DNA of 64,000 nt from an uncultured Gemmataceae bacterium (GTDB lineage Bacteria; Planctomycetota; Planctomycetia; Gemmatales; Gemmataceae), in contig CAVVPN010000003.1 in NCBI GenBank assembly GCA_963750165.1, positions 2,624,001-2,688,000 of the forward strand. Direction: 5' to 3'. Below the pieces are notes generated by a model. That model saw nothing but the letters and a program-made list of their open reading frames with translations. It had not been told where the DNA came from and did not search any database. Shown one piece after another: positions 21,155-40,805 of this stretch; the first letter of the stretch is position 1; each line of letters begins with the position of its first letter. Both the position numbers and the translations under genes were made by a program.

Positions 21155-22558
21155 TCAGCGGACCAGTTCGCGCTCGACGCGCTCGAGGATTTCACGGACG
21201 CGCAGCGGACGTTCGCCCAGCGTCAGCACGCCGTCATCCTGCACCCACTGCCGCACTTTCTTCTCGGCGGCGACGACGGTGCTGTGCGTGCGCTTGCCGA
21301 AGTGTTTGCCGATCTCGGTGTAGGTGGCGGCGGTGTGCTTGCGGCCCAGGAACATCGCCAGCATGCGCGGGTGCGACCACGCCCAGGCCCGCTGCTTCGA
21401 CTGCAGCGCTCCCGCTTCGAGCCGGAGCACGCCGCACACCGCCGCGTCCACGTCCGCCAGCTGCACCACGCGGACCACGTGCCGCAGCACGTCGCCCAGC
21501 GCCTCGCGCGCCAGGGCCACGTCCACGCGCTTGCCGGCGACCCGGCCGTAGTGCTGGACGCTGTGCAGCGCCCCCTCCAGCTCGCGGACGTTGCCGCGCA
21601 CCTGTTCCGCCAGGTAGCGGAGCACGTCCTCGCCCAGCGCCGGCGTGCCGCGCGCCATCCTGGCCCGCAGCAGGTCGAGGCGGGTGGCGGCGTCCGGCGG
21701 CAGCAGGCCCCAGACCGCCCCGCCGAGCAGCCGATCCGCCAGCTCCGGCATGAACTCCTCGCCCAGCCGGGGGTGACAGTCGCACGTCACCACTACCTGG
21801 ATGCCATCCGCCAGCAGCGCGTCGAAGGTGTGCAGGAACTCCTCCTGCGTCGCCTTCTTGCTCGCCAGGAAGTGCAGGTCGTCGAGCAGCAAGGCGTCGC
21901 ACTCGCGGAACTGCCGGCGGAAGGCGCTCAGCTTGCCGAGCCGCATCGCCTGCACGAAGCGGTTCGTAAAATCCTCCGCGGTCACGAAGCAGACGCGCCA
22001 CTCCGGCTGGCGCTTGCGCAGGCCAGCGTAAATGCCCTCCAGTAAGTGCGTCTTGCCGGTGCCGACCGGGCCGTGCAGCACGAGCGGGTTGGCGTCCTGG
22101 CCGGGGGACTCGACGACGCTGAGCGCCGCGGCGTGGGCGACGCGGTTGCAGGGACCGACCACGAAGTCGTGCAGGTGCCGCCAGCGCCGGCCGCGCGTTT
22201 TCGCCTTCTCTGGCCGTGGCACAGGCGTCCCGCCTGGGTGGGGTTCTTTCACAGGCGTCCCGCCTGTGCCACGAGGCACCTCGTCGCGGCGAGCCTCCTG
22301 AAACAGCTCGGGGTCGATGACGAAGCGCACGGGGCAGGGCTGGCCGAAGACATCCGCGGCCGCGAGGCGGACCACGTCGGTGAACTGTTTTTGCAGCCAG
22401 TCCTGGTAGAAATGGTTCGGCACGCCGACGACGACAGCGTCGCCGGAGCAGTCGATTTTCGTCTTGTGGAGGAACCACAGGTTGTAACGGGGTTCGCCGA
22501 TCCGCAGGGCGATAGCCTGCCCCAGGGCCGACGCCACCTCGGGCTCGCTGGTCGTCAA
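21155..22558 (-). CDS. dnaA: Chromosomal replication initiator DnaA (paralogue)
   Basis: FVVGPCN, NPL..HGPVGTGKTHLL, LLLDDLHFL..K.ATQEEF.HTF, GNVRELEGAL, domain IV HSTV. Confidence 0.92.
   Translation of the reverse strand: MTTSEPEVASALGQAIALRIGEPRYNLWFLHKTKIDCSGDAVVVGVPNHFYQDWLQKQFTDVVRLAAADVFGQPCPVRFVIDPELFQEARRDEVPRGTGGTPVKEPHPGGTPVPRPEKAKTRGRRWRHLHDFVVGPCNRVAHAAALSVVESPGQDANPLVLHGPVGTGKTHLLEGIYAGLRKRQPEWRVCFVTAEDFTNRFVQAMRLGKLSAFRRQFRECDALLLDDLHFLASKKATQEEFLHTFDALLADGIQVVVTCDCHPRLGEEFMPELADRLLGGAVWGLLPPDAATRLDLLRARMARGTPALGEDVLRYLAEQVRGNVRELEGALHSVQHYGRVAGKRVDVALAREALGDVLRHVVRVVQLADVDAAVCGVLRLEAGALQSKQRAWAWSHPRMLAMFLGRKHTAATYTEIGKHFGKRTHSTVVAAEKKVRQWVQDDGVLTLGERPLRVREILERVERELVR
22215..22273. 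repeat. In-frame REP-like doublet in the DnaA domain II linker
   Basis: 13-bp IR CGTGGCACAGGCG / CGCCTGTGCCACG; two CACAGGCGTCCCGCCTG units each encoding GGTPV. Confidence 0.75.
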
Positions 22559-22775
22559 GGTTGCCTCCCGGCGCACCTCGACTGCACGAGCGCTCCTCGC
22601 TCAGCACAGCTCGTTCCGCAGAAAAACTTCGATACGCCGCGCGGTCCGCGAAGGACCATGCGAGGCCGCGCGGGTAGGGGAAAAGAGACGTGCAATTCTA
22701 AACGACGCGGCCGGCACCGCAAGCGAAATGGCGAGACGGCGGACGGAACCACGGCGCGGCACAGCGTCCCGACCG

Positions 22776-23771: not shown

Positions 23772-24659
23772 TCATGTCTGACCGGGCCGCAGCGGCCGCT
23801 GGCCCCAGGGGATGGGCATGGTCGGCGGCGTGCGGTGGCGGTCGCGGCGCGGGTCGGGCTTGCGGTCCTTGAACCAGCTGACGAAGCGCACCAGTTGCTT
23901 GACGGCCTCCTCATACGCCTGCTTGCCCTTCTCGGCGGTGGCCAGTTGCGCCTCGCCGAGGACGCCCGTCTCGGAATACGAACTGGTCCACGAGATGAGC
24001 GTCGCGGGGCCGGCGGCGAACAGATCGACCCAGCAAAACGGGCTGTCCTCCTCATTGAAGCTGATGGTGCCGCTCTTGATTTGATCCTTGCGGACGTTGT
24101 CGCCGTCGAGGTAGAGGTACAGCGACGTTTCCAGTTCGCAGGCGTGGGCGCAGCCGCCAGGGAACTTGCTCTGCCGCCAGCGTGGCAGAAAAGTCTTGTC
24201 GATGGTGAGCAGGGTCCACCAGCAAGCGGGGATGCACTCGGCGTCGGTTTCGAGGTTGGTGCGGCGGGCGACGAGATCGAGGTTGGGCCAGTTGGAGCCG
24301 TGGCCATTGAGCAGAACGATCTTTTTGAAGCCGTGGTAGGCGAGCGATTTGGTGATGTCGAGCACATGGTGCATGAAGTGCTCGAAATCGTTGTTGATGG
24401 TGCCGGGGAAGTCCATGACGTGACCGGTGTAGCCATAGCAGACGGTGGGCAGCACCAGGAGCTTGTCGGGCACGGCCTTGCCGGCGCCGCGGGCGATCTC
24501 GGTGGGGCAGATGAGGTCCACGTCGAGCGGCAGGTGCGGCCCGTGCTGCTCGACGGCGCCGCAGGGCAGCAGGCAAACCTTGCCGAGCGCGACGGCGTCG
24601 TTGATCTCGGGCCAGGTGAGTTTTTCGTAACGGTATTCGGTGGCGGCTCGGCTCGGCAT
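23772..24659 (-). CDS. Creatininase/creatinine amidohydrolase-family protein
   Basis: GAVEQHGPHLPLDVD, H..DFPGT, NGHGSN, HACELETS, G.LG.A..ATAEKG. Confidence 0.92.
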   Translation of the reverse strand: MPSRAATEYRYEKLTWPEINDAVALGKVCLLPCGAVEQHGPHLPLDVDLICPTEIARGAGKAVPDKLLVLPTVCYGYTGHVMDFPGTINNDFEHFMHHVLDITKSLAYHGFKKIVLLNGHGSNWPNLDLVARRTNLETDAECIPACWWTLLTIDKTFLPRWRQSKFPGGCAHACELETSLYLYLDGDNVRKDQIKSGTISFNEEDSPFCWVDLFAAGPATLISWTSSYSETGVLGEAQLATAEKGKQAYEEAVKQLVRFVSWFKDRKPDPRRDRHRTPPTMPIPWGQRPLRPGQT

Positions 24660-24793
24660 GTGCGGCTCCCGGAACGTGAGTGAGGGTTGCGGGTCGTTGT
24701 ATCCGCGGCGGGCCGCGGCGGTGAGGGGTGGTGTTGCCCGAGCAGCGGGCGGCGGCTATGCTGCGGCGAACCAGGCCGGGGCACGGAGGCGCT

Positions 24794-25727
24794 ATGGCAC
24801 AGCAGACGTTCGACCCGAGCAGCAAGTGGATGCTGGAGGTGTACGGGGCCAGCATCCTGTACCTGGCGGGCGCCCGCGGCGTGCTGTCGTGCAAGGCGCG
24901 GAAGGCTGAGGTGGTGCAGCCGCGGCAGCTGCCCGACGGCCTGCTGGAGGCACGCTTCGCCGACAGCAAGGAGCCGCGGCTGGTGCTGGTGGAGGTGGCC
25001 ACGTACCCCGAGCCGCGCGTCGTGCAGCAGGTGTGCGACGACATCCGCCTGGTACGGCAGGCGCGCGGGGTGCTGCCCGAGGCGGTGGTGCTGTGCCTGT
25101 GCCCGCGCGGCCAGTACCGCGTGCCCGAGCAGGCGCAGGCACGGAGCGCGCTGGGCTGGACAACGGAGACGCTATCGTGGAAGGTGGTGGAGTTGTGGAC
25201 GCTGTCGGCGGAGGAACTGTTAGCGGCGCCGAACGTGGGCGTGGTGCCGTGGGCGACCCTGGCGCGGTACGACGGGCCGCCGGAGGTGCTGTTGCAGCGC
25301 TGCCGCGACCGCATTGACCGCGAGGGCGGCAGGCAAACCGACAACCTGCTGGCGGTTAGCCAGGTGTTCGCCAAACTGCACTTCGACCGGCCGGGATGGT
25401 TGGAGATTATAGGAGGAAAGAAGATGTTCAGCGATTTGCCTCCGATTAAGGAGCTTACCGCCGAGTCCGCCCGGGCAACGCACGTGAAGAATATCCTCCG
25501 TGTCCTGAGTAAGCGGTTCGGCGCGGCGCCCCCCGCCGTCGCGGCCGGGCTCGCACAGGTGAAGGAGGAGGATCAGTTCGAGCGCCTGCTGGACCTGGCG
25601 GTAACTTGCGCGAGCCTGCCGCACTTTGAGGATGCGCCTGCGCCGGGAATTGCCCGCACCACCGCCGGCCTCAACGCGCGGCAAACGCCGCTCGCGCAAG
25701 GCACCGCCGGAGGAGGGAAAGCCCTGA
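24794..25727 (+). CDS. Rpn/YhgA-like (PD-(D/E)XK, DUF4351-type tail) hypothetical protein; late frameshift
   Basis: GGAGG RBS; FDPSSKW, LPDGLL...LVEVAT, ILRVLSKRFG..P; alternative frame stops at 25727. Confidence 0.65.
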
Positions 25728-25838
25728 CGGGACTCGGTGGTGGCTCGGCATGGGGGATTCCCGGGTGTATGGACGGCTGGTGGGTAAGGGTTTGCGGGTC
25801 GTTGTATCCGCCCGGGGCTGCGGTGGTGAGGGGACTGC

Positions 25839-26747
25839 TCACCCGAGTTTCCGAATCGCTTTCAGGGCATCCTGCGCACGAACGTAATCCATGCGGCTGG
25901 TGTCGCCGAGGTACTTGAAGAACCGTTTCACCCCCGTCAAGAATTCCTTGCGCCGCGTCGCTGGTTCCGAAGGCAACCCGGCCAGGTAACGCTTCACGTC
26001 CTCCGAGCCAATCTCACGCAGCGACCGCGGCTTCGCCAGGGTGAGCAGGTACGTGTCCCCGAACGCGGCCAGGTTCGCCAGGTCGCGTTCCACCACCCTG
26101 GGGCTGAGGCCGGCGGCGAACAGGTGAGCGCGGAAGGCGGCCAGCACTTTGCTATTGGTTTCCGCCACGTTGGCCGCCGCGTCCTCGGGGCTGATCGGTT
26201 TCAGCGAGGTGAGCACGGCGCCGCGTTCCTTGGCGTCGCGGTACGTCTCCTCCAGGTCCTTCCGGTATCCCGGCCCCACCATGACGTTGTAAGGGACGAT
26301 CAGGCTGTCGTAGATGATGTGGTCTTCAAACGGGAGCAGCACGGCATCGGCGATGCAGGGGACGAAAGGAGTCACCTCCTCCAGGGAACTGGCCAACCCC
26401 AGCACCCCGTACACGGCCGAGGGGTCGCCGCCGATGAGAATCGAGTAACGCTTCAGGTGTCGCAGGACGAAGAATTTCCCCTCGCGCCGGTCCTTCCAGC
26501 TCGCCGCCAGGGCCAGGTCGGCGTCGGACAACTTTGCGGGGTTCTCGGCGACGAAGGCGTCCAGCAGCGAGTCGTCGGCCCAGAGGGCGTCGCGGATGAT
26601 CTTCACCTTGGGGACTGACCAGGGGCCGTCCAGGCCAAAGTCGGGCGGCAGCATCTCCGGCACCAGCTTGAGCCGCCGGTTCACGAATAGCATCAGCGGC
26701 TTCCAGATGGCGTAGAAGCGCTCCACCTGATCGGCTGAAAGTTGCAC
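25839..26747 (-). CDS. Conserved hypothetical protein with an integrase SAM-like C-terminal region
   Basis: RDALW...LLDAFVAENP..L, VYGVLGL, LLPFEDHIIYD; tail AFRAHL...GLS.RVVER...VKRFFKYL. Confidence 0.7.
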   Translation of the reverse strand: MQLSADQVERFYAIWKPLMLFVNRRLKLVPEMLPPDFGLDGPWSVPKVKIIRDALWADDSLLDAFVAENPAKLSDADLALAASWKDRREGKFFVLRHLKRYSILIGGDPSAVYGVLGLASSLEEVTPFVPCIADAVLLPFEDHIIYDSLIVPYNVMVGPGYRKDLEETYRDAKERGAVLTSLKPISPEDAAANVAETNSKVLAAFRAHLFAAGLSPRVVERDLANLAAFGDTYLLTLAKPRSLREIGSEDVKRYLAGLPSEPATRRKEFLTGVKRFFKYLGDTSRMDYVRAQDALKAIRKLG

Positions 26748-26796
26748 GGCAATCCCTTCCTCCCTTTGCCACCTGAACGGGCGGAGGTGGTGAACT

Positions 26797-28044
26797 TTAA
26801 TTCCTCAATCGATACTGGAGCCAGTCTGCCAGCAGAGTTCCGGCCCAGACCACCGGGATGGACAGCAGAAACAGGAACTGGTAATCGCGGTGCCAGTCGA
26901 AGTCCGTCAACCCGTCAAGGATCGATCGCTCTGGATCGAGGGCGCGCCGGACCAGGGCCGTCGCACCTTGGAGCGTGGCGGCCAGCCCCAGGGCGACCGA
27001 AAACTTCAGGTACTTGAAGTGCGGCGGCTTGAGCGCCAGGTGGATTTCGCCGGTGAGCAGCCCCGTCCGGGTCTCCACGCGGTACACCAGCCGGTCCGGT
27101 TTGCTGACCAGTTCACTGTAGATCACATCAATGTCAAACGTCCAGCCGTTTTCCTCCGCCTCAAACTCTGCCTTGCGGACGTAAATCAGTCCTGGAATGT
27201 CCTGGAGTTTGATGTCCTTCACCTCAGCAGCGTTCTGCGGCCGGATCACCACCTGGTAACTGCCGCCGCCGACCAGCGGGTACGCCGAGCGCACCAGGCC
27301 GACGGGAGGACCGCCGCGGCCACCGGCGCGAAGGACGATCTGGTCGGAGGACAACCGGCTCGGCTCCAGAAAGCGGAACAGTTGGCCGACCTTGGCCGTC
27401 ACGGGTTTGACGGCGACGCTTCGTTCGGAACGCACGTCCGCACCGTCCACCACCGCCGACATGAGAATCTTCAGGTCCCCTGTGGCGGCGACGATCGCCG
27501 TCTCCACGTCTCCCGGTCCGAACGCCAGCCGGACAATGGGCCACTTGCCGGAGCGCACCGCCGCCTCCGGGCCGATGTGAATGCGCAGGTTCCTGTACGC
27601 CGTCTGTCCCTCGTGGTGGAAGGTCAACAGAACCTTGGTGGTGTCACCGTAGGAACAAATGGGCTCGTCGGAGACAACCACGTCCCGCCCCAGGGCCGGC
27701 CGGACCTGTACGAGGCGGGACGGCAAGGGCACAAGATCATCCACCTCGGCCAGTTCCAGGCAAATCGTTGCCAGTTCCAGTTCGCGCACACTGGCCACCT
27801 TGAGCAGCATCGTGAAACGGTAGGATTCGCCCGGCCGGACTTCCACGTCACGCTGAAGAAAATCGCTATCGATCTGCACGTCCTTGTCGGCGCAGTCCAC
27901 GTTGCGTACGCGGACGGGGGTCTTTTGATCCAGCGGCCGGCGGAGGCGAATCGTGAGCGGGAACCAGGTGCCGACGAACGCCGTCCCCCCGTCTATTTCA
28001 AGGTCGATAAGCACGGGCGGACGGGGAGGAGTTAAGGCGACCAT
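26797..28044 (-). CDS. Hypothetical beta-rich (Ig-like) protein with C-terminal TM hairpin
   Basis: Alternating hydrophobic beta pattern; no signal peptide; two hydrophobic segments near the C-terminus. Confidence 0.7.
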   Translation of the reverse strand: MVALTPPRPPVLIDLEIDGGTAFVGTWFPLTIRLRRPLDQKTPVRVRNVDCADKDVQIDSDFLQRDVEVRPGESYRFTMLLKVASVRELELATICLELAEVDDLVPLPSRLVQVRPALGRDVVVSDEPICSYGDTTKVLLTFHHEGQTAYRNLRIHIGPEAAVRSGKWPIVRLAFGPGDVETAIVAATGDLKILMSAVVDGADVRSERSVAVKPVTAKVGQLFRFLEPSRLSSDQIVLRAGGRGGPPVGLVRSAYPLVGGGSYQVVIRPQNAAEVKDIKLQDIPGLIYVRKAEFEAEENGWTFDIDVIYSELVSKPDRLVYRVETRTGLLTGEIHLALKPPHFKYLKFSVALGLAATLQGATALVRRALDPERSILDGLTDFDWHRDYQFLFLLSIPVVWAGTLLADWLQYRLRN

Positions 28045-28064
28045 GACGGGATCCCGGAAGGATG

Positions 28065-30070
28065 TCAGGATTTCGGTTCCACAATGGCTTCTGTCGCTTC
28101 AACCAGTTCCGGAGCGCCATCCAACTTGGCGATGGCCTGCCGGACCTGGTCCAGCAACTCCCCAAGGTAAGTAGCCTTGATTTTACTCAGCAGGTAGGCT
28201 TCACCCGTGACCCAATCGTCCGGGGAGTAGTCATCGCGGTTTTTCCACACCTCGACGGCGGCTTTCAAGTTCGTCTCATCTGCCGGGATCAATACCCGGT
28301 CGAAGATTTGGCCCGGCTTCTGTTGTGCGTACTGCGGGTCAATCGGCCTGGCCCGAACTGGCCAGAGTTGGTATCGAGCAGCCTGTAAGTTGGCAAGCAA
28401 TCTGATGCACTCAGGCATCTTGTCGTTGTAGGTGAACGGCAGGCGCACCAGAAAGATGCGGAACCAGCGGCCAGAATTGTTTTTGGAACAGAACTGAACG
28501 CGGAGGACAGGACAGGCGTTGGTGTCCGTTTGTCTGTCTTCCCAGGTAACCAGGTCGATCCCCATCGAATCGGCCAGAGAATGTCCGGCAAGTTGCAACA
28601 GCTGTTTTACCGTTTCCAGGTGATCCTTGATGTACTGGTGCTCGGGGATGGTTTCTTCATCCTTCCGAAACTCTTTCTGGTAAGTCTGAAAATCGATTTG
28701 TGGACCGATCACCACCTCGGTGATTACCTTGCGAAACTCGATGTCAAAATTCCGCAGTGTGTCGCGGAGTGTGGCCTTTTGCGCGAGTTCGAGCACCCGC
28801 TTCTGATCGAGGGGCATGTAGCGGTTGCCAATCAGATCCAATTTCGGCACCACTTCTTCGCGGTCTTCTCCAAGCCAGCGGTTAATGCGCTGGTAGTACA
28901 AAGCCAGCACCTCCGACGATTCGATGTCGGTCAGAATGAAATTCGGATCCTGGCGGATGCGGTCACGGAACTGGCCCTCCATAGTGGCGATGTACTTGTC
29001 ACGCAATCCTATCGTCATGGTGAACAGAATGAACACGTTGGGCAGGGCGTTGTAGAGTTCGCTCAACTGGGCGAAAAACTTGCGCCACTCATCCGGCGTT
29101 TCAAAGAGGGCTTCGCGGGCCTCCGACTGGTCAAAGGCAAAGAAGAAAACCAACGGACGGGCCGGAGCGCCGTTTACTGATTTGAGCTTGGCAGACACGT
29201 CCGGGGTGAACAGGCTGACAAGGATTTTGATGACGTCAAAGATCTTGAAGTTGTGGTCGATCTCGTCCTGCATGCCCAGTTTGCGCAGGAAATAATCATG
29301 CACGGGCTTGCGCCGCAACCAGTGCAGCACCTTTTCGCGGTCTTCCACGAACAGGTAGCGCAACAGCACGTGCATGACGTGCCGGTGGAAACAATTGTTG
29401 CTCTCCAGCAGAAAACGCTTGCATACGTAGCCGGCGAATTTCCCAAACTCCAGGCTGCGAAAGATGCTGATGTCCCGCTTCTCGATGGCCTCCAGGAACT
29501 GGCCGTGTTCCGCGCCGGTTAACTTGGCCCGGAGCCGACTGAAGAACCCCTTCATGGACCGGCGCTTGTAGTGTTCGATTTCGCCCGGCCGGTCAACGAT
29601 CTGCCGCAGGGCCTGGAATGCAATGTCCTTGATCCGTTCGAGAAGCCGGTGCGGTTCATCGGGAGACGGGTACACCAGGGCATCCAGGATCCACTGGAGC
29701 AAACACGCCTCGAACTCGGGCGGTTTCCAGTGGTTGGAGTTGCACACCAACTCGTACCGGAGGTCCTCCGCCCGTTGCCGCGACCGGAAGCAGTTAATCA
29801 GGTGGGTTTTCCCCATCCCCGGGCTGCCCGTCAGGATGACCAGTTGCGACACCTGGCCGTGGTGGATCTCCTTGAGGATGGCTTCAATGCGCTCGCGCAC
29901 CTTGCTGTGAATGGCCGGAACGTCAAGGTCCACGACGTTGGTGTGGTAGCGGGTGATCCCGTCCGCACTGAACGGCGAGTAGTTGAATTCGGGGTTGCGC
30001 CGAAGCGCAACTTGTAGGACCGCAACACTTCCAGCCGGAGCGATTCAATGTTGAGCGAGGGTGTGCTCAT
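28065..30070 (-). CDS. P-loop ATPase (frameshift near 29990)
   Basis: Walker A GSPGMGKT, Walker B-like FFFAFDQSE; ATG 30070 overlaps upstream stop (ATGA). Confidence 0.82.
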
Positions 30071-31023
30071 GGGCGTTTCCAGAGAACGTGGTAGTAAAGC
30101 TTGCCATTGTGCTCGATGCCCAGGTCGGGTTCGGTGGCCTGCTCGCGTTCGTTGAGCACGTGCAAATCCAGGTCGCGCCGGTCCCATAAATCAAGCAATT
30201 GCCGGTGAAACGTGGCAACCGACAACTCGGGCAGCGACTTGACCGCCTCGTGGTAGAGGCGGTTCAAGGGGATCAGTCCATCCTGGTAATCGACGAACCG
30301 GCACAGTTTTTCGTAAGCCTCGTGGAGCACCGGGACCAACGATTTCGGCTCTGTTGGCGGCGTGAGAGCCGGGGCCTCGGCCGGGGTTGGCGTTTGATGG
30401 GCCGTGCGGACCGGCAACGCCTGCAACCGCTGCTCGACCCTGGTCAGCATCGTGGCAAACGCCTGGTCGAGTTTGTCGGCCGTCGCCCCGTTATCACCGC
30501 CCCGCGTCAATTTCTCCAGCTTTTCAAATTGCTGGGCCAGGTCCGTCATTTTTTTCGTAAGGTCGGCTACGGCCTTCTCGACCTGTTTGGGCAGGTCGTC
30601 TACCTTCTTGGCTAGGGCGGCCACTTCTTTTTCCACTTTCTTCTCATCCGGCTCTTTTTTCTTACCCTTGAGGGCGGCTTCCACCTGGCTGCGTAGTTCC
30701 TGACGGTCCGCCTCCAGGTCAAGTTTCAGCGATTGCAACTGGCCGTTACTGGTGGCGGCCAAGGCTTCCGGGGAGGCCGCCTGGTTGAGCCAGGCCACGC
30801 CCTTGTCGGTGAACCCGACCGCATCGACCTGTTTGCTGGTGGTTTTGCCCGCCTTGTTAGTGGTCGTCACCTTGGTCTTGCCGGCAGCCAGGAGTCCCTC
30901 ATCTGCCGCCTGCTTCAACGGTTTCTTGAAGGGTTTGAGCAGGGTGGCCTTGGCGTCCACCGCCTGCCCGCCGAGTAGGCGAACGGCCAACAGGGCGAGC
31001 AGCATTTCCGGGTCCGCGGTCAT
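30067..31023 (-). CDS. Coiled-coil protein with putative winged-helix termini
   Basis: EGLL...FTDKG N-terminus; Lys/Glu heptads; C-terminus LIPLNRLY...LSVATFHRQLLDL...GIEHNGKLYY. Confidence 0.75.
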   Translation of the reverse strand: MTADPEMLLALLAVRLLGGQAVDAKATLLKPFKKPLKQAADEGLLAAGKTKVTTTNKAGKTTSKQVDAVGFTDKGVAWLNQAASPEALAATSNGQLQSLKLDLEADRQELRSQVEAALKGKKKEPDEKKVEKEVAALAKKVDDLPKQVEKAVADLTKKMTDLAQQFEKLEKLTRGGDNGATADKLDQAFATMLTRVEQRLQALPVRTAHQTPTPAEAPALTPPTEPKSLVPVLHEAYEKLCRFVDYQDGLIPLNRLYHEAVKSLPELSVATFHRQLLDLWDRRDLDLHVLNEREQATEPDLGIEHNGKLYYHVLWKRP

Positions 31024-31154: not shown

Positions 31155-32613
31155 TTACGCCAGAACCTCCCGGATCGGCCGCCCGTAATCGACCTCCAGC
31201 CGCCGCCGGCCCGGCACCTCCAGCCGCCGCGGGTCCAGCCCCAGCTGGTGCAGCACCGTCGCGTGGAGGTCCGTCACGTAATGCCGATCCTCGACCGCGT
31301 GGAAACCGATCTCGTCCGTCGCCCCGTGGACGACGCCGCCCTTGATGCCGCCGCCGGCCAGCCACGCGCAAAAGCCCTGCGGGTGGTGGTCGCGGCCGTC
31401 GCCCTGCGCCCCGGCGAGCGGCCGAACTCCGTCCCCCAGACCACCAGCGTCTCTTCCAGCAGGCCGCGCCGCTTCAGGTCGCGCACCAGGCCCGCGATCG
31501 GGGAGTCCACCTGCGCCGACAGGTTGCCGTGGTTGCCGCGGATGCCGCTGTGCGCGTCCCACGCCCCGCCGCCGCCGCCGCCGTGGAACAGCTGCACGAA
31601 ACGCACGCCGCGCTCCACCAGCCGCCGCGCCGCCAGGCACAGCGTCCCGAACGGTCGCGTCGCCGGCCGGTCCAGGCCGTACAGCGCCTGCGTCGCCGCG
31701 CCCTCGCGCTCCAGCTGCAGCGTCTCCGGCACGGCGGTCTGCATGCCGGCGGCCAACTCGTAGGAGCGGATGCGCGCCGCAGCGCCGCGTCGTCGGGGTA
31801 CTCGACCGCGGCCAGCCGGTTCAGCCGGCCGAGCAGTTCCAGCTCCGCCCGCTGCTCCTGGGCCGTGGCGCCGCCGGCCGGCGCCACGAACGACAGCGGC
31901 TCGCGGCCGCCGACGTTGAGGCGGACGCCCGCGTGCTCGGCGCCGAGGTAGGCGGCGCCGTGCGTCCACGAACCGCCGCAGCAGTCGCCGGTCGGCGTGC
32001 CGAGCACGACGTACTCCGGCAGGTCCTGGTTGAGCGTGCCCAGGCCGTAGCTGACCCACGAGCCGATGGTCGGGAAGGCGCCCTCGCGGATGTGGCGGCC
32101 GGTGTGCCAGGTCAGCTGGGCGCCGTGGTCGTTGTGGTTGGTCCACAGCGAGCGCACGACGGCGATGTCGTCGGCCAGGGCGCCGCAGTGCCGCCACCAG
32201 TCGGCGACGGCGAGGCCGCTCTGGCCGTGGCGGCGGTGGCCGGTGTTCAGCCCCATGAGGACGCGGCGGCCGCCGTGCGCCGGGTTGCCGCCGATCACGT
32301 CGCGCAACCGCTCCGGGTTGAGCGCGGCGCGATAGGGCGTCTCGTCGATGGTGCGGCCGTGGTAGCGGTTCAGTTCCGGCTTGGGGTCGAAGCTCTCGAC
32401 GTGGCTGACGCCGCCGCACAGGAAAATCCAGATGACGCTGCGGGCCTTCGGTGGGAAGTGCGGCCGGCCGTCGGGCGGCGGGTTGTCGGCGCGGGCGACG
32501 CCGTCGCGGAACAGCAGGGCGCTCAGGGCCAGGCCGGTGAAGCCCATGCCGGTGTCGGCCAGGAAGGTGCGGCGGGACATCCCCGGGCAGCGCGGCGGTC
32601 GGTGCGTGGACAT
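31155..32613 (-). CDS. DUF1501 domain protein (about 2 frameshifts)
   Basis: Tat-like [46 protein letters not shown]. Confidence 0.9.
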
Positions 32614-32653
32614 CGGAAAGCCCCTTGGGAAGCTGGTCCAGTAATTGTCAGCG

Positions 32654-32784
32654 CTACTTCTACTGTGCGAGGTGGAGTGGGATGAGGCGTAGGACGGCTC
32701 TCCAGAGCCGTCTGTGTCGAAGAAGACGGCTCTGGAGAGCCGTCCTACGCCTCGCTTTCCCCGCATCCCGCACAGTAGAACTAC
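32654..32784. repeat. REP doublet (same family as the 16441 array) nested in inverted linker arms
   Basis: GTAGGACGGCTCTCCAGAGCCGTC doublet at 32689-32748, flanked by TTCTACTGTGCG / CGCACAGTAGAA. Confidence 0.88.
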
Positions 32785-33388
32785 TCAGGTTGTTTGGCCA
32801 GAATCTCGGTAAGTTTTTGAATCTTGATCGGGAGCGGGCGTTGCCATAGCCAGTCCGCGAGCAGCCAAAAACCGGGAAGCACCTCGCTCTGGTAAATCCC
32901 CTTTTTCGGCCGCACCTCTCGGTAGGTCCCCCGCACGGACAGGCGCAGCAACATGACCTTTTCCACCACCTCATCCACGATCCAGTATTCGCGGATTCCC
33001 GCCTTCTGGTACTGAGCCCGTTTGTTCTCGTAATCCCGCCCCATGCTTTCCGGCGAGACAATTTCGACGGCGAGATCAGGGGCGCTGCCACGTAACCACA
33101 CTTCACCGACTTCAGCTTGTTTTTACTGACGAAGGCAATATCGGGTTCCGGGGCATTGTTATCGTTCAGCCGGAACGCCACCCGCGACCCATAGACCTTA
33201 CCCAAATTCTTGGCCTGAACGTAATCGTAAATCAACCCCCCCAACCAAAAGAACAGGTCGTTGGCGTCCGTATTCTCGGGCGATGCCATGTAGATTGCCC
33301 CCTCAATCAAATCTCCCTTCTGCCCGTCCTTCACAACCACGCAAAACTCATCGAACGAATAGCCCTTCCTGGCCGTTTGCCGGGACAT
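32781..33388 (-). CDS. Uma2-family endonuclease (frameshift near 33085)
   Basis: DLIEG.IYMASP, APEPDIAFV, APDLAVEIVSPES..RDY..KRAQY..AGIREYWIVD. Confidence 0.85.
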
Positions 33389-36370: not shown

Positions 36371-36434
36371 TTGTGGGCGGCGGGTGTCATATAAATACCT
36401 ACTGAAATCCACCGCAGCCCCTGTGAGATACACC

Positions 36435-38146
36435 ATGCTCCGCACGGCCCTGCCATTCTGTCTCGCCCTTTCTTTCTGCACTCCGGCTGCCGCAGGCGAT
36501 GCGCCGGAGGTCCAGAAAAGCCTCAAGGATCTGGCCGACAAGGATGCGAAGCAGCGCCTGGCCGCGGCGCGGCGCCTGTCGAACCCCCAGGCCGGCGGCA
36601 AGGAAGTCGTCGCCGCGCTCGGCAAGGCCGCCGCGGACGACGACCCGGCCGTGCGCGCGCCGCGCTGGACGCCCTGCGCCTGCGCGGCCCCGCCGCCGCC
36701 GCTGCCTTGTCCGATCTCAAGCAGGCGCTCAAGCACAGCGACGCCTTCACGCGCGAACGCGCCGCCGCCGCCCTGGCTGCCATCGGCCCGAAGGCGAAGG
36801 AGGCCGAGGCGCTGCTCGCCGCCGCCGTCCAGGATCGCGACACGATGGTCTGCCGCGCCGCCGCCCACGCCCTGGCCTGCATCGGTGCCACCAGCGCGGA
36901 CGCCCTGGAGGGCCTGCGCCGCGCCCTGACCGACGCGGATTTCGGCGTCCGCCTCGCCGCTGCCCGCGCCCTGACTGACCTGGCGCCGCACAACGAGGCG
37001 ATCATTCAGGCACTGACAGCGACGGCGCTCGCAGGCCGCAAGGCGGAGGTCAAGGACAGGAAGGCGCTGCCGAAGTTGCCCAAAAACGCCAGGGCCCGGG
37101 ACGACCAGACGGAGCTGCGCGTCCAGTCGCTGCGGGCGTTGGCGGCCATCGGGTCGGCGGCCCGATCGGTTGCCCCGAAGTTGACGCCCTTGCTCCGCGA
37201 CCTGGAAAAGGTCATCGTAGTCCGCACCGATAAGGGCAAGGATGTCGAACAGGAAGCGAGCGCGGAGCCGGACGTTGCGGTGCGTCTCCAGGCCATTGCC
37301 ACACTGCAAGCGCTCGGCGCCACGCAGGAGGCGGTAGGGGGGCCGCTGGAGAAGGCGCTGCAGGATCGCAACCCGATGGTGCGGTTGCACGCCGCCGCGG
37401 CGCTGCGGACAATGGGCGAACCCACCGAGAAACTGGCACAGCCCGTGCGGGAAGCGCTGGCGTCGCCGGACGGGCGGGTGCGTTACCGGGCGGCGGTCCT
37501 GTTGACGGACTGGGGCCAGGACACCGACGGCAAGGCGGTGCAGGCCCTCCTTGGTTTGGTGGGCGACAAGCAGGAAAGCCCGGCCGTGCGCCGCGCCGCC
37601 GCCGCGACCCTGGCACGGTTGAAGCAGCACCTGGGCCTGGTGGAGGTGTACGTGCTCGGGGCCGTGACCGACCCCAACCCGGTCATCCGTGGCGAGGCGC
37701 TGCGGTTGCTGGAACTGCTGCCAGCATCGAAACAGCTGTCGGCTGCGGACAGGCTCAAGCGCCTGCGCGACGGCCTCAAGGATTCCAGCCCGTACGTCCA
37801 GCGGATGGCGGTGCGGACGCTCGGCGGCCTCGGCGCTGCCGCGAAGGAAACCGTCCCCGCGCTGAAAAAACTGCTCGACGCGAAGGACCTGGACCTGAGC
37901 CTGGAGGCGGCGCTGGCGCTGGTGCGCATCGACTCGAAGAACCAGGAAGCGGCCGAGTTGCTGACGAAGCGCCTCGGGCGGCCCTGGGTGCGTGGCGGTC
38001 GCGTCGGCTACCTCAAGACGCTGGCCGCGTCGAAGGCGGAGTTGCAGGCGCTGGACGGATGGTTCCAGGATTTGGCCGCGCACGACCCCGAGCCCGCGGT
38101 GCGCCGGCTGGCCGCGTCGGTGAAGGACAGGGCGAAAAAGCAGTGA
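36435..38146 (+). CDS. Secreted HEAT-repeat protein (frameshift near 36660)
   Basis: Signal peptide; repeated AL.D.D..VR..AA.AL units. Confidence 0.85.
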
Positions 38147-38312
38147 GCGCTTCTTTTCTGCCGCTTGCGGATCAGGGTGTTCGCGGCAGCCGACGCCTGG
38201 AAAGCACCCGTCTTGCCCCGCAACCGAAGGGGCGCATAATAGATTCTGTGGACGCAGAACAGACCTACCACGAATGCTCGGCGACACCCTCACCGGAGTC
38301 AGGCCTCAACTT

Positions 38313-40805
38313 ATGCGACCCACCGCCACCATCTTTGTTGTTGCGCTGGTCCTGACCGTAAGTTTTGTCGGCGTCACCGCAGCCGGGGCGGCGGCGCAAA
38401 AGCCCGCTGCCTTGACGAAAGAAGGCGTGGCGTTCTTCGAGAAGTACATCCGTCCGGTCCTGGCCGAGCGCTGTTACGAGTGTCATTCGACGCAGTCCAA
38501 AAAGGTGAAGGGCGAACTGCTGCTCGATTCGCAACCGGGCATGGCCAGGGGGGCGCCAACGGCCCAGTCCTGGTCCCCGGCGATGTCGAAAAAAGCCGGC
38601 TGATCCAGGCCATCCGCTGGACCGACTCCGACTTCGCCATGCCGCCCAAGGCCAAGCTGTCGCCGCAGCAAATCGAGCGCTTCGAGCAGTGGGTCAAGAT
38701 GGTGCGCCGGACCCGCGCACCAAGGTGGTGTCAGCAGCGCCCAAGAAAACGCTCGCCTCCGACCTGGAGGCCGGTCGCAAGTGGTGGGCGTTTCTTCCGG
38801 TGAACCCGGTGGCCGCGCCGGTGGTCAAGCAATCGGCATGGGCCAGGAAGAAAAGCGACTTTTTCGTGCTGCACGAACTCGAAGCGAAAAAAATCGCCCC
38901 GTCGCCCCGCGCCGATCCCCGCACGCTCATTCAACGCGCTTACCTCGACCTCACCGGCCTGCGCCCCAGCTACGAACAAACCGAGGCCTTCGCCAAAAAT
39001 CCCACCGATCAGGCCTACGCACAGATCGTCGAACAACTCCTCGCCTCGCCCCAGTATGGCCAGCGCTGGGGCCGCTACTGGCTCGATGTCGTCCGCTACG
39101 GCGAGGACAACCCGACCTCCGAAGCCACCAACCGGCCCTATCCCTATGCGTGGCGCTACCGTGACTGGGTCATTGATGCCATCAACCGCGACGTGCCGTA
39201 CAACCAGTTCGTCGCGCTGCAGCTCGCCGCCGACCTGATCCCGAAGACGCCCCGCGGCGACCTCGTCGCCACCGGCTTCCTGGCGCGGGGCCGATCTATC
39301 ACAAGGACGGCCGCCTGTCCAAGGAGGTCATCGAAAACCTCTACATGGATGATTGGGACGAGCGCGTGGACGTGGTTTCCCGCGGCGTGCTCGGGCTCAC
39401 CGTGGCCTGTGCCCGCTGTCACGATCACAAGTTCGACCCGATCTCCAGCCGCGATTACTACGCCCTGGCCGGGGTCTTCGCCTCCACGGTCGCCGCCCCC
39501 CGCCCTCTGGCCGCCGTCGATCCCCAGGTCGAAACGCGCTTCATGGCCGCGACCCAGCGTCTTTTCTACGTCAGCTACCTCGCCAATTTGATGCGCAGCG
39601 AACCGGGAACCAGGCCGAAGGCAGCCCGGAAAAAGGTCGAGCAGTTCATCAAGGAACTGGACAGTATTGAGGCCGAGATCGCCGACCTCCGCGACCAGTA
39701 TCCCGCGCTTCATGCCCACCTCGCCCGCCTGGACAAGCGGCCGGCGCCTTACGAAACCAGGCCGGGCACCAGGACGGCCCCGCCGGCGGGGAAGCAAAAA
39801 AAGAAACGCGGCGACGGCGCCGAACCGTATTTCCATTCGGTCTTTGACGCCGGCCTGTGGGTGGACGGCACCGACCCGGACCTGACGCTGCTCGACATCC
39901 GGCCCGGCCAGCCCCGCGACCTGCGCGTGCTCGCCGGCGGCAACGTCGCCAAGCCCGGCGAAGTCGCCTCGCGTGGCTTCCCGGCCGTCCTGGCGAAGGG
40001 TGACCCCAAATTTCACCACGGCTCGGGCCGGCGGGAACTGGCGGCAAAAATCTTTACCGACGCCGCCCCGCTCGCCGCCCGGGTCATCGTCAATCGCGTC
40101 TGGGGCTGGCACTTCGGCAAGCCGCTGGTCGAGACGCCGAGCGATTTCGGCACCCAGGGCGAGAAACCGTCGCACCCCCAGTTGCTCGACGACCTGGCCG
40201 CGCGTTTCATCGCCCACGGCTGGTCGCTCAAATGGCTACACCGCGAGATCATGCTCTCCGCCGCCTACCAGCAGGCCAGCCGCCCGCGCCCCGACGCCGC
40301 CAAACTCGACCCCGGCAATCGCCTGCTGTGGCGGATGAACCCGCGCCGCCTCGACATCGAGGCGTATCGCGACTGCCTCCTGCAAGCGACCGGCAGTCTG
40401 GACACCCGTCTGGGCGGCCCGTCCACGGATCTCGACCAGTCCGGCAACAAGCGCCGCACCGTGTACGGCCGTGTCAGCCGCGGGCGCGTCAATGGCCTGC
40501 TGGCACTTTACGGCTTCCCCGAAGCGACGATGCACAGCCCCGGCCGCGAGACCACGACCACGCCGCTGCAGCAACTGTTCGTTCTGAACAGTCCGTTCCT
40601 GCGCGACCGGGCCGCCGCGCTCGTCGGCAGTGTCGCGCAGGAGCCGGACGGGAACGCGAAGGTGCGTGCCCTGTACCGCCGGGTGCTGGCCCGCGACCCC
40701 AGCCCGCGCGAGTTGACGCTGGCGAACGCCTACCTCGCTGGCGGCAGCCTGACCGATTACACCCACGCGCTGCTCTGCACCAACGAGGTCATTTACTGGC
40801 CGTGA
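38313..40805 (+). CDS. PSCyt1 + DUF1549 + DUF1553 cytochrome c protein (about 3 frameshifts)
   Basis: [60 protein letters not shown]. Confidence 0.88.

Follow-up and report, generated by a model that had tools for sequence, protein, structure and literature searches.

The 64,000-nt window analyzed here (positions 2,624,001 to 2,688,000 of the forward strand of contig CAVVPN010000003.1, assembly GCA_963750165.1) comes from an uncultured Gemmataceae bacterium and carries a row of four tightly packed minus-strand genes. The first three, hereafter the trio, encode a putative DNA-binding protein (gene 1), a predicted Orc/CDC6-type AAA+ ATPase (gene 2), and a predicted membrane protein built of immunoglobulin (Ig)-like domains (gene 3). 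As a preliminary description of the window had stated, genes 1 and 2 share an ATGA overlap, gaps of 20 bp and 49 bp separate genes 2/3 and 3/4, respectively, and the ATPase gene is more AT-rich than core genes (GC content of 0.563 compared with 0.682 in the flanking genes). No sigma-70-type promoter was found at the operon, and terminators were not in excess. Searches of Pfam, NCBIfam, and PADLOC gave no match above cut-off for genes 1–4.

Table 1 Features of the four-gene locus (positions in the window).
Feature	Position	Strand	Remarks
Gene 1	31023-30067	-	318 aa
Gene 2 (predicted Orc/CDC6-type AAA+ ATPase)	28065..30070	-	~668 aa if the frameshift is read through
Gene 3	28044-26797	-	415 aa
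Gene 4	26747-25839	-	302 aa; unlinked passenger, outside the module
Gene 1 architecture	30067..31023	-	basic N-terminal domain, coiled coil, conserved C-terminal domain
RcaD-like signature domain at the C-terminus of gene 1 (residues 225-318)	30070..30351	-	best-conserved part of the alignment
One-base frameshift in gene 2	29998..30002	-	probably an assembly error
Gene 2 Walker A GSPGMGKT and the invariant His after it	29805..29828	-	G61, G64, G66, K67, and H69 invariant in 47/47
Gene 2 Walker B variant hhhhDQxE	29121..29132	-	D293, Q294, and E296 invariant in 47/47
Gene 2 stretch with invariant R350 and R415	28764..28961	-	candidate arginine finger and sensor 2
Gene 3, three Ig-like beta-sandwiches (about 8-118, 119-215, 230-340) and C-terminal helical hairpin	26797..28044	-	
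Gene 3 motif FRFLEPxxL in the linker that joins Ig domains 2 and 3 (residues 223-231)	27352..27378	-	conservation 0.73 versus 0.41-0.55
Gene 3, two hydrophobic helices (342-368, 388-414)	26803..27021	-	hydropathy and model

We compared 43 loci encoding the ATPase, namely that of the window, 21 from genome contigs, 9 from genomes, and 12 from metagenomes. Five duplicate loci and two hits due to chance were omitted, and the flanks ranged from 0 to 10 kb, being short in several loci. Gene 1 was located directly upstream of the ATPase gene in 37 of the 38 loci with enough sequence, the single exception having a transposase-like open reading frame (ORF; judged by eye) in its place, and gene 3 was located directly downstream in all 35 testable loci. 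The trio co-occurs elsewhere. Among 267 genomes of the order, the ATPase was present in 26 (E below 1e-50) and gene 3 in 30, including all 26 ATPase carriers; the four gene-3 genomes without a counted ATPase comprised three contig-end fragments and one decayed remnant. Genes 1–3 are inherited as a unit. Gene 4, which had been taken as part of the same operon unit, does not belong to the module, since no match to it was found in the first 21 trio loci and its family occurs away from the trio (43 of the 267 genomes). Relatives of gene 4 are found on haloarchaeal and Ruminococcus plasmids, and its only domain match is a weak, integrase-SAM-like one (E 0.049). No recurrent fourth gene was seen beside the trio beyond close kin.

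The ATPase gene is present as described, but it is not a single open frame from the overlapping ATG (30070). The first 23 codons are out of frame with the remainder, both pieces align to close homologues, and one base is lacking from a brief stretch of Cs around 30000. This frameshift is likely an assembly error, because conserved loci of the same assembly are split too: of 16 distinct conserved loci in a small survey, 3 had split frames (5 of 20 queries), one of them the gene beside rpoB, which reads by eye as rpoC. Ordinary genes of the window itself also seem to be split across frames (31155-32766, 32660-33388, 36384-38146, and 38274-40805), which is consistent with indel errors in the assembly; the halves of an Uma2 gene among them were recognized by Pfam and the others by eye.

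Gene 2 retains all of the predicted catalytic motifs of an AAA+ ATPase, including R350 and R415, which we take to be the arginine finger and sensor 2. They are followed by a C-terminal alpha/beta region of ~150 aa that lacks conserved acidic residues: no Asp or Glu was conserved in at least 75% of the 47 aligned rows between residues 480 and 630. We rejected an active nuclease in this tail, as it has no conserved catalytic residues. One Arg in the region is near-invariant across the wider family, and the comparison of the C-domain with that of its relatives remained at noise level (profile score of 15.5 versus a shuffled maximum of 14.5). In the trio ATPases, the last conserved helix lies close to the C-terminal end, and no C-terminal winged helix-turn-helix (wHTH) family matched gene 2 in Pfam or NCBIfam. 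Sequence searches found no relative of solved structure; the profile of the wider family weakly matched Hda/DnaA/ORC4. An Avs/STAND architecture was not apparent, with no repeat or effector domain on the ATPase, and the resemblance to Avs2 was confined to P-loop-level matches in single homologues. We obtained 97 close homologues, two of them under the database names Fimbriiglobus ruber and Urbifossiella limnaea. In a tree of 78 rows, the trio ATPases formed one clade of 35 rows with a Shimodaira–Hasegawa (SH) support of 100, all ATPase trees being built with FastTree only.

The trio ATPase aligned over residues 9-464 with a wider ATPase family (hhalign E 1e-38). Profile searches extended to distant ATPases whose names point to Myxococcota, Thermodesulfobacteriota, and Lokiarchaeia. 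In most of the fetched loci, the gene before such an ATPase carried the C-terminal domain of gene 1. Their further partners were a DUF559 nuclease and an AAA-HerA fusion in some loci, and NucS or DEDDh exonuclease fusions or GmrSD in others. On a plasmid of Pseudanabaena PCC 7367 (L051:5114-10073), RcaD-like and RcaG-like genes are followed by a PD-(D/E)XK-FtsK gene, with matches to SspH/mad8. Two Nostoc plasmids (L052:5527-11722 and L053:5512-10263) encode a DEDDh exonuclease-ATPase fusion and then DUF262/GmrSD genes. A sister subfamily (L071:5582-9788, L031, and L080) consists of a gene-1-type gene, an ATPase with a C-terminal HTH, and a small hydrophobic gene. In P0263 and L071 of this subfamily, IPT/TIG domains are fused to the ATPase, with the small hydrophobic gene downstream; it is possibly an independent Ig/membrane variant.

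These layouts recall the predicted HerA/FtsK capture systems, which according to the main text of PMC10853773 combine an Orc/CDC6 ATPase with an inactive restriction endonuclease (iREase) and wHTH, an active restriction endonuclease (REase), HerA/FtsK, and, optionally, a multi-wHTH protein. Section 22 of that paper argues from computational prediction that the class is anti-invader, as restated in the main text of PMC12839542. The fetched relatives of the ATPase match two capture layouts, namely DUF559 with the partner and AAA-HerA, and the partner with AAA and nuclease-FtsK. Capture systems and the trio share a homologous AAA+ ATPase encoded after an apparently fast-evolving gene, the C-terminal domain of that gene, and the gene order; the capture partner carries two to four wHTH units, and the N-terminal units of gene 1, possibly also winged helices, vary in number. 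By sequence comparison, gene 2 and, through its C-terminal domain, gene 1 are homologous to the Orc/CDC6 and multi-wHTH core of the capture systems, and gene 2 is assigned to the Orc/CDC6-type ATPases of this family, a clade name taken from PMC10853773. In contrast, no match to the DUF559 or PD-(D/E)XK-FtsK profile and no HerA/FtsK gene was found near the ATPase in any of the 43 loci. The trio would work like the capture core, yet it is not a member of the class, as it lacks the active REase and HerA/FtsK. The main text of PMC10853773 describes two variants without HerA, in which Ig and membrane domains are both missing, and a third gene encoding three Ig domains and a hydrophobic hairpin is absent from the variants in it. 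We found no description of the trio in the literature, of which the supplements of PMC10853773 and PMC12839542, outside our search, may list it; neither "RcaD" nor "Planctomyc" occurs in the two main texts.

The N-terminal domain of gene 1 is probably a winged helix. Within the gene 1 family, a single distant homologue matched a wHTH family in Pfam, below threshold (HTH_45, E 1e-4), and a unit of ~65 aa at the N-terminus is present in two or three tandem copies in 9 of 36 aligned homologues. The C-terminal domain is common to the genes upstream of related ATPases, and its iterated profile recovered the upstream partners of distant ATPases together with the cyanobacterial protein. Three further proteins with this domain are encoded in the same genome (C3:1460383-1461135 [L024], C3:2896461-2897318 [L023], and C11:11092-12183 [L022]); one of the genes lies ahead of a split gene for a distant ATPase, a member of an "NPFRNYF" subfamily, and the other two are solo. 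This subfamily recurs in the order, and in L024 and L082 its ATPase gene is followed by a folC-like gene (by eye).

The preliminary description had likened genes 1 and 2 to the cyanobacterial pair RcaD and RcaG, reportedly described by Noubir et al. in 2002 from Tolypothrix (Calothrix) PCC 7601, with RcaD as CAC39267. The planctomycete host is not known to have phycobiliproteins. The likeness holds for a cyanobacterial pair with the motifs ascribed to RcaD/RcaG, that of the Pseudanabaena plasmid, which served as proxy for the named sequences. The homology is very distant; it is clear for the ATPase (hhalign probability of 94.6, E 7e-8, 19% identity) and weak for the C-terminal domain of gene 1, which scored 8.9 bits where 2000 shuffles reached at most 7.8. 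With a broadened profile from which the Pseudanabaena protein had been kept out, the score was 16.6 bits. The gene order is the same, a DNA-binder and then an ATPase, while the third gene differs.

Gene 3 was described beforehand as a protein without a signal peptide, with several Ig-like sandwiches and two C-terminal hydrophobic segments, and our analysis bears this out. It has no hydrophobic N-terminus (best 19-mer hydropathy of 0.88), and its AlphaFold2 model (predicted local distance difference test score, pLDDT, of 82.8) has three Ig-like domains and the hairpin. The FRFLEPxxL linker is the most conserved segment of the protein and a candidate partner-binding motif, and model confidence is low there. 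Helix 1 bears a conserved small-residue face (A-x3-G-x-A-x-T-x2-G), which fits helix-helix oligomerization, and helix 2 a conserved I-P. Fold searches returned generic Ig matches only, with many unrelated proteins within 1-2 Z units, and ESM Atlas at 0.9 or more had no match for gene 3 or the C-terminal domain of gene 1. Two-helix membrane effectors are known from anti-phage systems, e.g., Cap15 of the cyclic oligonucleotide-based anti-phage signaling systems (CBASS) and the retron 2TM protein. Like them, gene 3 has a beta-rich domain, predicted to be cytoplasmic, and two hydrophobic helices and is encoded together with a putative sensor; unlike them, its helices are C-terminal, it is accompanied by no second-messenger enzyme or retron, and it has no match in PADLOC, Pfam, or NCBIfam. 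Ig-like sandwiches are also carried by BREX PglZ and DndH (main texts of PMC12839542 and PMC10853773); the fold is common, gene 3 is free of enzyme domains, and no sequence similarity to these proteins was shown.

Gene 3 is the only candidate effector of the trio, because the trio has no enzyme besides the ATPase, whose tail lacks conserved acidic residues, and it stands where capture operons have a nuclease or FtsK. The reading that we prefer, tentatively and at not quite an even chance, is that the trio is a DNA-sensing anti-invader module derived from the capture core, with a membrane-disturbing effector as its output. We infer as follows how the trio would bind DNA, how its proteins would contact one another, which topology they would adopt, and what phenotype would result. 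Gene 1 would bind DNA via its basic, repeat-variable N-terminal part and recruit the ATPase through its conserved C-terminal domain. On meeting foreign or replicating DNA, the ATPase would oligomerize on the DNA, and the oligomer may engage gene 3 at its FRFLEP linker or at its Ig domains, which would be cytoplasmic. The hairpins of gene 3 would then cluster and disturb the inner membrane, and the infected cell would be arrested or killed (abortive infection). Alternatively, gene 1 and the ATPase could load on DNA, with gene 3 serving as a tether, not a pore, that holds the complex at the inner membrane, either in defense, foreign DNA, incoming or outgoing, being held at the membrane in place of the HerA/FtsK capture step, or as housekeeping that positions a chromosomal or mobile-element locus. 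We regard a tether as somewhat unlikely. It would suit a gene 3 with three protein-interaction-type Ig domains and only a short hairpin in the slot of the DNA pump, the fusion and small hydrophobic gene of the sister subfamily, and the stable vertical inheritance. However, the trio encodes no nuclease to complete the job; roughly nine in ten of the order's genomes, complete ones included, lack it, so that it is not essential; and gene 3 has a conserved small-residue face that an anchor does not need.

All ATPase carriers of the order belong to the family of the window, which is Gemmataceae according to its named members, and in a phylum sample of 401 genomes the full ATPase was found in the window's own genome only. 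One divergent copy lies on a contig outside the family (L021), which is labeled Enterobacteriaceae and whose genes do not look enteric by eye. The coordinates of L003 coincide with G418, a genome of the window's family, and its database label Alcaligenaceae is probably wrong. G495, a bin with 7% contamination, has two trio copies of different subclades (L013 and L015). Identities of the ATPase and RpoB were correlated (Spearman 0.69, Mantel p 0.001, 296 pairs, in which kin are not independent), and RpoB sister genomes often had different ATPase subclades. GC content was lower than in the flanks in 30 of 32 loci, and low GC is therefore a trait of the family. The preliminary description had taken the operon as horizontally acquired; we rejected recent horizontal arrival as the main cause of the low GC, since the module is old in the family and its ATPase tracks RpoB.

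Several features of this history favor an anti-invader module. The presence of the trio is patchy, with clean present and empty sites and differing sites within one genus. At a site between MFS/dipeptidase and aminotransferase genes, the trio is present in G482, G472, and L059 and cleanly missing in G480, G478, and G468; six other genomes examined had different neighbors. The nonsynonymous substitution rate (dN) was far below the synonymous rate (dS) in all computable pairs of the three genes, indicating purifying selection, and the dN of the trio mostly exceeded that of flanking genes. Between G450 and G446/G447, whose RpoB is identical, dS was 0.5-0.8 for genes 1 and 3 and saturated for the ATPase alone, suggesting that the ATPase has been exchanged in place.

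Stops were found in the trio copies of G477 and G493, and in G467 (L114:2193-6480) a decayed gene 3 without genes 1 and 2 lies beside an integrase-like ORF (by eye). Together with the frameshift in gene 2 and the differing sites occupied, they could point to a selfish or decaying cassette, i.e., an addiction module or mobile-element remnant, possibly dead in this strain. We consider this very unlikely: dN is far below dS in all computable pairs, most loci are intact, no conserved mobility gene accompanies the trio, and conserved loci of this assembly have indels as well.

The enrichment in defense islands that had been envisaged was not seen. The search covered 146 flanking genes, at most three per side at 33 loci (Pfam E<=1e-8 on the first 500 aa), and was read without a random-locus or other background control. 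Housekeeping genes predominated, i.e., metabolic and planctomycete-typical families; besides these there were a few genes of toxin-antitoxin type, Uma2, NYN, one NACHT, and one transposase. Such neighborhoods would also suit a transcription regulator, in which gene 1 binds promoters, the ATPase modulates that binding, and gene 3 sits in the membrane as a sensor or as a partner that sequesters. The genome of the window encodes a further, related pair and, standing alone, two paralogues of gene 1, and the relevant part of PMC2799420 states that RcaD binds the cpc2 promoter, with RcaG as a putative helper ATPase, and that a Lyngbya RcaD-like protein binds DNA. We nevertheless judge a regulator unlikely, because no conserved target operon was found beside the trio, the Pseudanabaena pair itself precedes a nuclease-FtsK gene, gene 3 has nearly no outside-facing part for sensing, divergence is fast, and the ATPase has apparently been exchanged.

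Several findings speak against an anti-invader module. It is nearly confined to one family: in a class sample, gene 3 was present in 12 of the 88 genomes of the family and in 1 of 312 others. It has also long resided at the same sites and is broadly congruent with RpoB. Families of restriction-modification, Cas, BREX, and Dnd systems were absent among the 146 flanking genes (Pfam), the ATPase and two gene-1-type queries had no plasmid matches, viral contigs gave the ATPase one 24-residue chance match only, and no trio gene had a PADLOC match above noise. The hairpin helices are moderately hydrophobic (19-mer means mostly 1.1-2.0), so that an anchor is as compatible with them as a pore. In the cited parts of the sources, the parent capture class is purely predicted (PMC10853773) and promoter binding by RcaD-like proteins makes up the only experiments on the family (PMC2799420). 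The sensor/ATPase/membrane-effector reading nonetheless remains the best supported, while the novelty first proposed narrows to the third gene, the two-gene core having been predicted in 2024. In more specific form, the trio may be an ORC/Cdc6-type DNA-loading sensor wired to an Ig membrane effector or anchor, a nuclease-free and Gemmataceae-specific branch of the capture systems that turns recognition of DNA into an event at the membrane, with a parallel solution, the ATPase-IPT/TIG fusion and small membrane gene, in the sister clade; we hold this as possible, though doubtful.

Downstream of gene 4, a convergent plus-strand gene (24728-25918) looks by eye like an Rpn/transposase_31-type gene and had no Pfam match. 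It is bracketed by 45-nt direct repeats (87%; 24684-24728 and 25789-25833), is also flanked by 23-nt direct repeats (24650-24672 and 25742-25764), and is probably frameshifted close to its end. A minus-strand DnaA-like gene (21155-22576, by eye) lies ~3 kb downstream of gene 4, and other trio loci had no such linkage.

The trio reduces the core to the partner, the ATPase, and one non-enzymatic membrane protein, making the role of the core directly testable, and cultured carriers of the trio ATPase exist under the database names Fimbriiglobus ruber and Urbifossiella limnaea. If our preferred reading is true, the shared core would be a modular DNA sensor that drives outputs besides nucleases. 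These results also suggest that RcaD and RcaG, regarded as light-response regulators since 2002, would belong to a family of conflict systems.

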